From Dehalococcoidia bacterium (GTDB taxonomy: Bacteria > Chloroflexota > Dehalococcoidia > Plut-88900), in contig OZ240219.1 of NCBI GenBank assembly GCA_965197645.1, forward strand, positions 1,664,001-1,728,000: a stretch of DNA of 64,000 nucleotides, in the 5' to 3' direction. Positions 45,001 through 48,000 of the stretch are shown piece after piece; the first letter of the stretch is position 1, and the number at the start of each line of letters is the position of its first letter. Position numbers: made by a program.

Positions 45001-48000
45001 ATCCTTCGTCTCGGCGATTGTAGCCGCGGAATCGGTGCGCAACGCGGGCATCGCAGTCCTCGTGGCTATATTGGGCATCTTCGTGTACATCGCCTACGCT
45101 TTTCGCAAGATGCCCCACTTCTTCCGGTATAGCTTCGCCGCAATCATCGCTCTCTTCCACGACGTGATCATCATCCTCGGGCTCTTCTCCATCTTGGGCA
45201 AAGTCATCGACATGGAGATCAGCACCATGTTCATCACCGGGCTGCTGGCGGTGATCGGCTACAGCATCAACGATACCATCGTAGTGCTGGACAGGGTGCG
45301 AGAGAACGTTCAGAACCGGGCGGGCGAGAGCTTCGAGCAGATAGTGAACAACAGTCTCCTGGAGACCATGGGCCGATCTATGAATACCAGTCTCACGACT
45401 GCGTTCATGCAGATATCTCTGCTGGTCATAGGCGGCGCCACGCTAAAGCCCTTCATCCTCGTCCTGTTTATCGGTACAATAGTCGGGACGTATAGCTCTA
45501 TCTTCATCGCTACGCAGCTGCTGGTTATCTGGGATAAGCAGGAGTTCGGGCAGCTGTGGCGCAGAGTGCAGGTCAGACTGGCCGGAGCCAGGGAAAACTA
45601 GGGGGTAGGAAATGAGAGAGAAGCTGATTCCGCTGGAGCAGGTCAGCAAGCTGGTCCGGGACGGAGACCAGGTGCTGATGATGGGCGGCATGGAGTTCAC
45701 GCCCATGGCCGTCCTGAGAGAGATAGTCAGAGCCGGGGTCAAGGACCTCCACACCGTCGGAGTGGTAGGCGGGGCCATGAACCTGGACTTCCTCATCGGG
45801 GCCGGCGTCACAAACACCGTCGAAACCTGCGACCTGAGCCTGCCCCCGTATGCTCGGGTGGCTCCCAACTACCTGCGATACCAGAAGGCCGGCCGGGTCA
45901 AGATGAAGGACAACACCTGAGGGATCATGTACAGCATGGTCCAGGCTGGATCAATGGGAGTCCCCTTCGTGCCCACCCTTGGATACGCGGGCACCGACAT
46001 CCTTGAGCGTAGAGAGGACTTCAAGGTGATTCCACACCCCTTCGCGGAGGGTGAACGGATTGTGGTCGCCGAAGCCATTACCCCGGACGTGGCCCTCTTC
46101 CACGGCCCCAGGGCCGACAGGTTCGGGAATGTCCTGGCCGCGAATACGGGAGAGGCGCTGACACTGGCGCTGGCCTCCCGCAAGGTCATAGTCTCCGTCG
46201 AAGAGATTGTTGACGAGGTATCACCTCACGACCACGCCGGAGAGTACATACCCGCCCTGAACGTTACCGCGGTGGTGCATGCTCCCTTTGGGGCGCACCC
46301 CACCGGATGTCCCGGTTTCTACGAAGAAGACGTGGCCCACGTACAAGAGTACGTGGAGGCCTCGGCCTCCGACGATGCCTTCTCCGGGTACTTGGAGAGA
46401 TACGTCTTCGGCCCCGGGAGCCACGACTCTTATCTTGATAGGGTCGAGTTGAAGACCGAGGAGAAGGTGCCGGGACCGGTAGGTTAGTGTCCACTACCGG
46501 CGCCGACTGCAAACTGGAAGAGTACCTAGCGGTCCTCCTGTCGCGGGAGGTGCGGGACTTCGAGACCTCCGCCTGTGGAGCGCTCTCCTTCATACCGGCG
46601 GCCGGCCTGATCCTCGCCGAGTCTACTCACGCCTCTCACGGGGAGTACATCATCCTCGGCAGCCCGGCTTACCAGCCCTTCGCCTCTCCCAAAGACTTCC
46701 ACTACTTGGCCCAACGCGGGCAGATGGACCTGTTCTTCATCGGGGCAATCGAGATCGATAAGAGGGCGAATTTCAACCTCCACCTGATCGGTGACCCCGA
46801 CGAGCCGGATGTCCGGATGCCCGGCGGATACGGTACGGGCCTGCTTTACTACGCCGTGCCTCGCATCGTGCTGTTCCGTACCAAGCACGACAGGCGGACG
46901 TTCGTGGAAGAGGTCAATTTCGTGTCGGGGGCCGGCACGTCCCCCGAGGGGATAGCCAGGCGAAACCGAGAGGTCAGGGTGATCACACCGATGTCGATTA
47001 TGGAGCTGGACACGGAGACCCGTCTGCTAAAGCTGGTCTCGATACATGCCGGATACACCCTGGACGACGTTCAGGCAAACACTGGATTCGATCTGGGAGT
47101 GGACGGCGAAGCTCCGGTGACGCCTCCACCGACGAACGAGGAACTGACGAGTCTTCGTACCGTAGCGAAGCAGCGGATGATCGAGAGCGATACCTACGCC
47201 GATCTGGCCAGGTCTCTGATCAGAGAGCCCTAGCCCGTCTCAACCAGCTTTCGTCGAACCCGGGGCCGGTGTAGACGTTCTTGAGGGTGCGGACCCTTTC
47301 GATCCGCTCTTCAGCCAGCCGGTCTGCGGCTTGGGCCGTGGTCACTCCGTCCGCCTTGGACTTGGCTATGACGTTGGTCATCGTATCGTACACGTTGGCG
47401 GTCATGTCCATGGCGGCTTCCCGGCTGTAGCCCCCTATCTCGCACGCCACGGTTATGATCCCGCCGGGATTGATGGCGTAGTCCGGGGCGTAGAGAATTC
47501 CCGCATCGTGGAGCTCTTTGGCGTGCTCATCTTCCAGGAGCTGGTTGTTGGCCGCTCCGGCGACGATGGGGGACTTGAGCCGGGGTATTGTGTCGCTGTT
47601 TAGGACTCCGCCCAGAGCGCAGGGGGAGAAGATATCGCACTCTACGTCGTAGATATCATCAGGGCTGACTATAGTGGCGCCCATTTCGGAAGCCATGGCT
47701 ATTCGACCCTCGTTAATATCGGCGGCGATGATGTGAGCGCCTTCCTCTTTCAGGTACTCGGCGAAGCTGTAGGCGACCTTGCCGAATCCCTGTATTGCTA
47801 CCGTCTTACCCTCCAGCGAGTCTGAGCCGAAGACCTCTTTGCAGCAGGCCTGAGAGCCTTTGTAGATTCCATAGCCGGTGATCACCTCTGCGCCACCCAG
47901 ACCGCCCCGGGCCTCGGGCAGGCCCGATGCGTAGGGCGTCTCCTTCCGGACGTTGACCAGGTCGTCCACCACCGTACCCACGTCTTCAGTGGTGAGGTAC

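Follow-up and report, generated by a model that had tools for sequence, protein, structure and literature searches.

A candidate selenocysteine codon in a CoA-transferase-like gene pair of Dehalococcoidia and other bacteria

The gene pair, its surroundings and the selenocysteine machinery

The window analysed here is a stretch of 64,000 nucleotides from a Dehalococcoidia bacterium (assembly GCA_965197645.1, contig OZ240219.1, positions 1,664,001 to 1,728,000), and positions are counted along it unless stated otherwise. On its forward strand, a frame of 291 codons extends from 45612 to 46487 and terminates with TAG. Re-reading this frame, we find as its sole interruption a TGA at 45918-45920, the candidate selenocysteine (Sec) codon, just as the initial annotation of the genome had described for residue 103, and the PF01144 domain said to span the TGA indeed covers residues 9-223 of the A-like (alpha) protein (E 1.2e-18, 67.8 bits). 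The subunit B-like (beta) gene that was reported to follow lies at 46487-47233 on the same strand (248 codons, PF01144 at residues 61-198), its start at 46487 overlapping the TAG of A by one base. The best solved relative of the A protein is 1poi_A (E 2.7e-33), and the B profile matches 1poi_B (E 6.7e-39). An AF2 model of A (pLDDT 94.7) has a GctA/IpdA-like fold, with TM 0.85-0.88 to GctA and IpdA, and places residue 103 as the first residue of helix 103-115; the motif around the Sec column reads D-N/S-T-U-G/P. Against NCBIfam the A protein gave two matches only, both far under their cut-offs, in agreement with the earlier statement that no NCBIfam selenoprotein model exists for it. A second strain's contig, which has 38 differences, retains both the TGA and the hairpin described below. 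Contigs from three RNA-library runs (156-214 nt) map to 45666-45893, 46081-46294 and 46695-46898, that is, within each half of A and within B, with DNA carry-over possible, and none of them spans 45918-45920.

The A-B pair is the sole conserved element when the window is compared with 15 loci of the class, 12 loci from other phyla and four regions of 10-18 kb, the neighbours being housekeeping genes, transporters or varied enzymes. Recurrent neighbours are TctC receptors in betaproteobacterial loci and, in those of Binatia and Methylomirabilota, genes of the glyoxalase and MFS families. From these neighbourhoods no pathway could be named, and no steroid (HIP) catabolic neighbours were seen in them. 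The TctC and MFS transporters beside betaproteobacterial copies would equally suit an acid-activating transferase.

SelA, SelB, SelD and tRNA-Sec, all four of which had been claimed for this genome, were recovered in it. The gene for the Sec-specific elongation factor, selB, lies outside the A-B operon at 61995-63848 (+; contig positions 1725995-1727848) and belongs to the decoding machinery, scoring 346.8 bits against TIGR00475 (cut-off 242.25). Scores for selA and selD are 547.7 and 379.7 bits, selD having an in-frame TGA of its own, and the tRNA-Sec has the anticodon TCA. Of the 54 class genomes with the TGA form among the matches listed, 51 have SelB above its cut-off and three, all drafts, show none above it; of five TGA carriers outside Chloroflexi, four have it above the cut-off, and the fifth has a 198-residue fragment where its contig ends. 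This association discriminates weakly because SelB is common in the class (291 of 401 genomes).

Conservation of the UGA column and of the hairpin downstream

In the order to which this bacterium belongs, 11 of 12 genomes, counting its own, contain a match of 62-100% identity in which a single TGA occurs, which bears out the earlier account; the twelfth, G001, offers no more than a relative of 34% identity without the TGA. The spread first reported for the class (21 of 24 genomes with hits, six families, from 151 genomes) grows in a sample of 401 genomes, for which 150 of 264 matches were listed, to at least 54 genomes and nine family codes with the one-TGA form among the matches listed; in one family code, f6, the gene is present in 25 of 25 genomes among these matches. 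The initial annotation had inferred the identity of the TGA column in the orthologues from truncated proteins. That doubt is removed by direct reading of the DNA at 65 loci of the class, aligned to query residue 103: all 40 TGA loci have it in this column, as did all 26 of a first batch, each with one TGA. When all prokaryote species were scanned, 45 of the 79 loci obtained had TGA at the residue-103 column. The Sec form was said to be widespread in SAR202/Dehalococcoidia, where it is indeed found, but it is not confined to them, as 25 of the 45 TGA loci are labelled otherwise: 14 as Betaproteobacteria/Burkholderiales, with further labels including SAR324, Methylomirabilota, Binatia, Planctomycetota, Deltaproteobacteria and Dethiobacter. 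Protein identity across phyla is 36-66% with conservation on both sides of the TGA, and homologue matches run across it (query residues 1-291 or 1-27x). Several orthologues have TGA as their terminator, and thus the codon is not reassigned.

The nearest relatives without TGA have Cys at the residue-103 column. A Cys codon (TGC or TGT) occupies it in 5 of the 65 class loci and 5 of the 79 species-wide loci (L052-L055, L084, L132, L134, L143, L146 and L148), and Glu occupies it in 20 of the 79, which form a separate subfamily. Among the best 120 database proteins are 77 fragments, 169-206 aa long, whose first residue falls at query residues 105-115, the same count as before; the remaining 43 cover the column with Cys in 41 and Glu in 2, a predominance of Cys comparable to the 14 of 15 first noted. 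In a tree, Sec and Cys forms make up one clade (SH-aLRT 90, or 99 when L054 is omitted), with the Cys forms interspersed among the Sec forms.

A candidate bacterial SECIS (bSECIS) upper hairpin lies at 45937-45953 (+), with a stem of 6-7 bp and the loop A-GGC-U at 45943-47; the distance from the UGA is 16 nt to the stem and 22-23 nt to the loop. The bSECIS model (PMC13188914, Fig. 2 legend) describes an apical loop of 3-9 nt, an upper stem of 4-16 bp, a G in the first two loop positions, a UGA-to-loop distance of 16-37 nt and an MFE of -7.5 kcal/mol or below. Stem, loop and spacing of the hairpin lie within these limits, and the energy of the window's isolated copy is borderline, its -7.2 kcal/mol falling marginally short; orthologues reach -23.3 and -21.7 kcal/mol over 48 nt, which is within the energy limit. 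The initial annotation had found the hairpin no more stable than shuffled sequences (z -0.55), and the single window copy again proved weak: over the 48 nt past the UGA its stability is about that of shuffles (z -0.32), and its minimum-energy fold is another hairpin, at 45922-45942, which is absent from the orthologues. Single-sequence folding was therefore discarded as evidence either way, and covariation was used instead. At 40 Sec loci, six defined pairs are all formed in 34 and five of them in the other 6, whereas 2-4 of the same pairs are formed in Cys forms and 1-4 in other forms; one TGA locus, L123, forms only 4 of the 6. Of the 40 Sec forms, 34 have the codons CAG GCT GGA, which none of the 5 Cys forms has. 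Over 54 distinct sequences, 96.3% of cells are paired, compared with 81.7 +/- 1.3 after shuffling (0 of 500 shuffles reach the observed value), and pairing falls to 22-45% when the stem register is slid. Compensatory changes are found at three of seven pairs (29:45, 31:43 and 32:42), and the same helix is predicted independently by RNAalifold. It is this conservation and covariation across loci that settles the weak hairpin of the single sequence. A lower stem beneath the conserved hairpin was rejected, as it forms in L116 and L058 in differing registers and is dropped by RNAalifold. The genome's own selD has a similar structure past its UGA, with an 8 bp stem and a GUA loop.

Direct reading of the DNA, the covarying SECIS-type hairpin and the phylogeny of Sec and Cys forms together support the central claim, namely that this PF01144 subunit-A-like protein has a genuine Sec-UGA where a Cys is otherwise conserved. 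We infer that the open reading frames 45612-45920 and 45927-46487 are, in all likelihood, one gene whose UGA is decoded as Sec by means of the downstream hairpin. Judged by its sequence, the gene pair very probably encodes a selenium-containing enzyme.

Active-site columns and comparison with enzymes of the same fold

The pair has the PF01144 fold in both subunits and the adjacent genes of a class I CoA-transferase, and GctAB of Acidaminococcus fermentans (PDB 1POI), which shares these features, is the best match to both subunits in sequence and structure (TM 0.88 for A). The catalytic Glu of the beta subunit, however, is replaced. The Glu of IIVESG in GctB aligns with Leu57 of the B protein, and the 77 aligned B genes beside a TGA-form A have Leu (57), Ile (18) or Arg (2) at this column and Glu in none; in the same part of the B alignment there is no other invariant Glu. 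The pair in G001, whose A protein lacks the Cys, keeps Glu at the beta-Glu column. At locus L047 no B gene was found beside A, and an apparent A-B fusion of 517 aa at L056 was rejected, since a stop separates A from B in its translation. In PMC5380842, the beta Glu (Glu54-beta of GCT) is described as catalytically essential, Gly57 as standing in its place in IpdB, and IpdAB as being without CoA-transferase activity.

On the alpha side, the residue opposite query residue 103 is E in both 6co6_A and 6con_A; in 6coj_A, with the title 'IpdAB E105A COCHEA-CoA complex', it is A. By alignment, the Sec103 column is that of Glu105 in IpdA. Crowe et al. are said to have described Glu105 as a catalytic base in 2018. 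IpdAB is the cholesterol ring-cleaving hydrolase of Rhodococcus jostii RHA1 and Mycobacterium tuberculosis (PDB 6CO6, 6CO9, 6COJ, 6CON), and it resembles the present pair in being an alpha/beta pair of similar sizes and fold (TM 0.85-0.88), with a beta subunit that lacks the catalytic Glu and a special alpha residue, E105 (Ala in 6COJ), at the Sec103 column. Yet this column holds Sec or Cys here instead of Glu, identity is only about 25%, no steroid-catabolic genes were seen beside the pair in the loci compared, and by sequence score the Sec family is nearer to GctA, which has Gln at the Sec column. The pair shares with IpdAB the missing beta Glu and departs from it in the alpha residue. AibA/AibB of Myxococcus xanthus (PDB 5MZW-5N03), a 3-methylglutaconyl-CoA decarboxylase, likewise has a GctAB-like fold without being a transferase, according to the entry titles. 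Its catalytic beta Glu is replaced by a Cys, altered in deposited variants of AibB, and the Sec column is occupied by Gly in AibA. In contrast, the Sec family carries its thiol or selenol on the alpha subunit, and its beta-Glu column is Leu, Ile or Arg, with no Cys.

These columns bear directly on whether the Sec protein could still be a CoA-transferase that activates an imported carboxylic acid by means of a non-canonical nucleophile or a Glu located elsewhere. Such a role would fit the PF01144 domain in both subunits, the rank of GctA as the best solved relative, and the TctC-family receptors, MFS transporters, LysR regulator and family III CoA-transferase found near betaproteobacterial, Binatia and Methylomirabilota loci. 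We nevertheless consider it improbable, given that Leu, Ile or Arg fills the beta-Glu column in 77 of 77 B genes, that no substitute Glu is invariant nearby in the B alignment, and that the Glu-less fold relatives IpdAB and AibAB are no transferases according to the entry titles and PMC5380842. In addition, a thiol or selenol is, to our knowledge, unable to form the acyl-anhydride and the enzyme-CoA thioester of the class I mechanism. The label of CoA-transferase subunit A-like protein given by the initial annotation therefore holds for the PF01144 domain, whereas the transferase function probably does not, because B lacks the catalytic Glu and Sec103 falls at the column of IpdA Glu105.

Lower still is the probability of a redox role for the Sec/Cys, such as forming a selenenylsulfide with CoA-SH or a partner thiol in thiol/CoA redox or detoxification. 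Most known selenoproteins are redox enzymes in which Sec usually stands for a redox-active Cys (PMC13188914, section 7), and genes of the GST and glyoxalase families adjoin some copies of the pair. The Sec family also resembles the selenoproteins of that inventory in having its Sec-UGA at a Cys position, a bSECIS directly downstream, and Sec and Cys forms interspersed in the tree. However, the inventory consists mostly of thioredoxin-like redox proteins with UxxC/CxxU, a motif that is absent from the Sec site here; no second conserved Cys lies near the Sec column, the Cys in the N-terminal part of B is unconserved, and no redox member is known among the solved fold relatives listed. Moreover, Glu at the same column, both in IpdA and in the separate subfamily of 20 loci, argues for acid/base or nucleophile chemistry. 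Finally, a real stop in a split or decayed gene, giving peptides of 102 aa and 186 aa or none, agrees with the public gene calls, as seen in the C-terminal database fragments, and with the insignificance of the single-copy hairpin taken alone, but it is very improbable, as decay would not hold one TGA in one column across phyla with both sides conserved, with Cys in sister genes, a covarying hairpin found in TGA forms only, and the gene in every f6 genome among the matches listed.

Proposed role of the candidate active-site selenocysteine

Taken as a whole, the explanation that we favour, a Sec-UGA gene encoding part of a GctAB-fold alpha/beta enzyme that is probably not a transferase, appears to us highly probable. 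SelB and tRNA-Sec would decode the UGA at codon 103, directed by the small hairpin 16 nt downstream, to give the alpha subunit, and the beta subunit would be supplied by the overlapping next gene. In this clade the beta subunit has lost the glutamate with which true class I CoA-transferases form the enzyme-CoA intermediate, and the alpha position of IpdAB Glu105, at the N-terminus of a helix, is taken by Sec or, in sister lineages, by Cys. From its sequence, the product looks like an IpdAB/AibAB-like acyl-CoA-converting enzyme with an active-site Sec or Cys. As the likeliest reading, at slightly short of an even chance, we propose that an acyl-CoA is bound and that the selenolate or thiolate acts as nucleophile or base in its non-transferase conversion. 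Candidate reactions would be retro-Claisen C-C hydrolysis or lyase action, decarboxylation and isomerisation, for which IpdAB and AibA/AibB, of the same fold and no transferases, may offer a parallel.

A further-reaching possibility, which we put forward tentatively and consider rather unlikely, is that the family adds a fourth active-site solution to those of the GctAB fold and, with it, a selenoenzyme of a new kind, in which an alpha-subunit selenolate would serve as nucleophile on CoA thioesters for non-redox C-C or C-S chemistry through a selenoester intermediate. It would then be a core function in SAR202-type Dehalococcoidia, as its presence throughout one family code suggests, shared with betaproteobacterial and other lineages and possibly serving to degrade the alicyclic or branched carboxylates in refractory organic matter.

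As stated in the initial annotation, no PF01144 or CoA-transferase family appears in Table 1 of the selenoprotein inventory PMC13188914, taken over the whole table, and neither 'CoA' nor 'transferase' occurs in the main text of BSepDB (PMC13326102). Our literature searches found nothing relevant on Sec in a CoA-transferase or glutaconate CoA-transferase or on the selenoproteome of Chloroflexi, and nothing joining selenoproteins with SAR202; PMC5736913 mentions Sec for formate dehydrogenases only. The prokaryotic selenoproteome would thus gain a widespread enzyme family of many phyla, in a fold without a selenoprotein in that inventory. What appears to be new here, by alignment, is the correspondence of Sec103 to the IpdA Glu105 column and the absence of the catalytic Glu from all 77 aligned partner B genes, so that a CoA-transferase-fold enzyme without the transferase nucleophile, bearing Sec or Cys at the key Glu of IpdAB, may provide a testable case of non-redox selenium use. 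Most public entries of the gene are truncated, with the UGA taken as a stop, so that it goes missing or is given the wrong label when the metabolism of SAR202 and its relatives is reconstructed. Since cultured Paenibacillus and Cohnella have Cys forms, enzymology is feasible at the bench, and the gene pair is carried by many ocean, sponge, groundwater and soil bacteria.

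The TGA column of the A gene and its relatives

The alpha-type PF01144 gene (A gene, 45612-46487, + strand) has a frame of 291 codons that ends in TAG and is interrupted once, by a TGA at 45918-45920 (codon 103). Standard ORF calling breaks it into two same-frame pieces, 45612-45920 (102 aa) and 45927-46487 (186 aa). Translation across the TGA gives a protein whose residues 9-223 match PF01144 (E 1.2e-18) and whose only two NCBIfam matches fall far under the cut-off. The adjoining B gene (46487-47233, + strand) encodes a B-type PF01144 protein, its GTG start overlapping the TAG of the A gene. 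Around the pair, the window holds housekeeping genes: upstream is SecDF, and downstream is a dehydrogenase gene of the Glu/Leu/Phe/Val family in convergent orientation. Sequence comparison makes it very likely that these A subunits are a true selenoprotein family, widespread and mis-annotated.

Within the order, a match with a single TGA and 62-100% identity is present in 11 of 12 genomes, the window's own (G000) included; the sole relative in the twelfth, G001, is 34% identical and has no TGA. An evenly drawn sample of the class (401 genomes, among them the unpublished G243, whose match is non-TGA) gave matches at E <= 1e-20 in 191 genomes. Among the 150 of 264 matches listed, the one-TGA form occurs in at least 54 genomes with nine family codes, down to 36% identity, and in all 25 genomes of family code f6. 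When locus DNA was mapped to query residue 103 (n=65), the column held TGA in 40 loci (Sec forms), TGC or TGT in 5 (Cys forms) and other residues in 20, the last being more distant subfamilies. Several orthologues terminate in TGA, and thus TGA remains a stop codon in these genomes.

A species-wide scan with a profile of 12 Sec forms, using one genome per prokaryote species, returned 80 loci, of which 79 could be mapped (TGA 45, Cys 5, Glu 20, other 9); 11 of the 80 had already been counted in the genomes sampled here, and 34 TGA segments are new and distinct. By record title, the 45 TGA loci belong to Chloroflexota (20), Betaproteobacteria/Burkholderiales (14) and 11 others: SAR324, Lambdaproteobacteria, Pseudomonadota, Methylomirabilota, Binatia, Planctomycetota, Deltaproteobacteria, Dethiobacter, a Streptomyces-labelled MAG and two unlabelled bacteria. 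The Bordetella parapertussis label on one betaproteobacterial locus, a MAG, may be unreliable. The TGA and the downstream hairpin are both retained on a contig of 13.6 kb that comes from a separate study and carries 38 differences.

A quick maximum-likelihood analysis of 64 A proteins (the partial L072 omitted) puts Sec and Cys forms in a single clade (SH-aLRT 90, or 99 without the Cys-form locus L054), separate from the other-residue subfamilies. Cys forms are scattered within it, the starred branches requiring at least two to three Sec-Cys changes, and Sec and Cys paralogues occur together in two genomes, G036 (L064, L084) and G180 (L067, L055). Fragments of 169-206 aa starting at query residues 105-115 account for 77 of the best 120 database proteins, and the 43 that span the column carry Cys (41) or Glu (2). 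Such records are named 'glutaconate CoA-transferase subunit A', 'CoA-transferase [SAR202 cluster bacterium]' or 'hypothetical protein'.

The candidate SECIS hairpin and the decoding machinery

A candidate bSECIS hairpin (45937-45953, + strand) lies at a fixed place in every Sec form, 16 nt past the UGA, with the stem U/G/C-G-N-U/C-C-C-(A) and the loop A-GGC-U. Of its six defined pairs, all are kept in 34 of 40 Sec loci and five in the remaining 6, compared with two to four in 5 Cys forms and one to four in 20 other loci. The codons underlying the hairpin are CAG GCT GGA in 34 of the 40 Sec forms and in 0 of 5 Cys forms, even though most Cys forms encode the same Q-A-G. Pairing in the helix is 95.6% for the class set (36 distinct sequences), against 82.2 +/- 1.6 after shuffling, with two compensatory pairs. 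With other phyla added (54 distinct sequences) it is 96.3% against 81.7 +/- 1.3, a value reached by 0 of 500 shuffles, and slid partners pair at 22-45%. In this larger set compensatory changes affect three of seven pairs, 29:45 (UA, AU, GC, CG), 31:43 (GU, CG, AU) and 32:42 (UA 36, CG 15), and some jointly switch the residues encoded by both arms (Val/Ile/Leu/Ala with Ser/Ala). Run without structure input, RNAalifold returned the same helix as its sole consensus.

The published bSECIS model calls for a small loop with G in the first two loop positions, N1-G-[G|U]-N-N2 (PMC13188914, section 5 and Fig. 2 legend). The hairpin matches in its small loop, early loop G, UGA-loop distance of 22-23 nt and stem of 6-7 bp, and only its energy is borderline, the window's isolated hairpin having -7.2 kcal/mol where -7.5 is required; over 48 nt, two orthologues fold at -21.7 and -23.3 kcal/mol. 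The initial annotation had cautioned that the hairpin is not more stable than shuffles, which is true for the window copy alone (z -0.32). The minimum-energy fold of that copy is a neighbouring hairpin common to no orthologue. Immediately 3' of the UGA, G000's copy alone has a 9 bp hairpin (45922-45942, + strand), which could compete with the conserved hairpin because it overlaps the latter's 5' arm.

G000 encodes tRNA-Sec (anticodon TCA), selA, selB and selD. The 64 kb window itself contains selB (61995-63848, + strand; TIGR00475, 346.8 bits), about 16 kb downstream of the A gene. selD (G000:C1:941844-942767, + strand, locus L099) is itself a predicted selenoprotein gene: a TGA lies in frame near the start of the match, and a stem of 8 bp with a GUA loop follows it at a spacing similar to that in the A gene. 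Of the 401 class genomes, 291 have a SelB match above cut-off, as do 51 of the 54 with the TGA form; the three TGA-form genomes lacking such a match are all drafts. All five TGA carriers examined in other phyla have selB, four above cut-off and one as a piece of 198 residues where a contig ends. In G000 the tRNA-Sec model also matches L002 (G000:2853074-2853163, 50.8 bits) and L003 (G000:2949813-2949898, 47.9 bits) just above its gathering score; both are probably long-arm tRNAs.

The active site compared with GctAB, IpdAB and AibAB

The best solved relatives of the A protein are GctA of glutaconate CoA-transferase (1poi_A, E 2.7e-33), AibA of 3-methylglutaconyl-CoA decarboxylase (5mzw_A, E 7e-23) and IpdA of a steroid ring-cleaving hydrolase (6co6/6coj/6con, E down to 5e-17). 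An AlphaFold model built from 43 sequences (pLDDT 94.7) superposes on solved relatives with TM 0.76-0.88 and places residue 103 at the opening of helix 103-115, following strand 97-100. In ungapped local alignments this residue pairs with Glu in 6co6_A and 6con_A and with Ala in 6coj_A, whose PDB title is 'IpdAB E105A COCHEA-CoA complex'; the Sec column thus corresponds to Glu105 of IpdA. The residue at this column is Gln in GctA and Gly in AibA. Crowe et al. in 2018 reportedly proposed Glu105 as the catalytic base of IpdAB.

The IpdAB reaction is described in PMC6678751 as a retro-Claisen hydrolysis. According to PMC5380842, Glu54-beta of GCT is essential for catalysis, IpdB has Gly57 in its place, and IpdAB has no CoA-transferase activity. 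Over its full length, a profile built from 16 B subunits aligns with GctB (E 6.7e-39), placing the Glu of IIVESG opposite Leu57 of the window's B protein. B genes adjoining a TGA-form A gene have Leu (57), Ile (18) or Arg (2) there and never Glu, two such genes not having been aligned; the G001 pair, whose A protein lacks Cys, has Glu in B. AibB differs in having Cys at this column, altered in deposited variants.

The A-B family probably adds a new active-site variant to the GctAB/IpdAB fold. Given that the class I nucleophile is absent and that Sec or Cys occupies the alpha site used by IpdAB, we lean toward the family not being a CoA-transferase. It would instead be an acyl-CoA-converting enzyme of a non-transferase type, and a mechanism in which residue 103 serves as nucleophile or base toward the acyl-CoA is put forward tentatively, at slightly less than even chances.

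A sister subfamily (L147, L152-L159, L162, L165, L169, L171-L177, L179) has Glu at the Sec column of A and a B subunit without the catalytic Glu, and thus is IpdAB-like. Its hosts are Acidimicrobiia, including the sponge-associated 'Candidatus Poriferisocius', and Acidobacteriaceae.

Novelty, RNA contigs and gene context

Dehalococcoidia MAGs are among the most selenoprotein-rich organisms in BSepDB, the main text of which never mentions CoA or transferase; supplementary lists of selenoprotein papers could hold the family. Table 1 of the 2026 review PMC13188914 (119 families) has no PF01144 or CoA-transferase-fold family, and full-text literature searches returned nothing on a PF01144-fold selenoprotein family. 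In three RNA-library runs labelled as sponge metagenome, contigs cover parts of both A halves and of B at 97-99% identity, none of them bridging the UGA.

Across lineages, the A-B pair alone is conserved. Betaproteobacterial copies are surrounded by TctC-family receptors, one also lying near a LysR regulator, a family III CoA-transferase and an alpha/beta hydrolase, and the Binatia and Methylomirabilota copies adjoin glyoxalase-family and MFS genes. These neighbours outside the class suggest catabolism of some carboxylate, with no pathway named. The most pathway-like context among those inspected is that of the Cys-form pair L054 in G093, flanked by an HpaB/4-hydroxybutyryl-CoA-dehydratase-family gene and a carboxyltransferase-domain gene. 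In the Binatia locus, a gene with PF08915, the archaeal-type Thr-tRNA-synthetase editing domain, stands directly upstream of A (L130, 872-1459; L184, 5930-6496).
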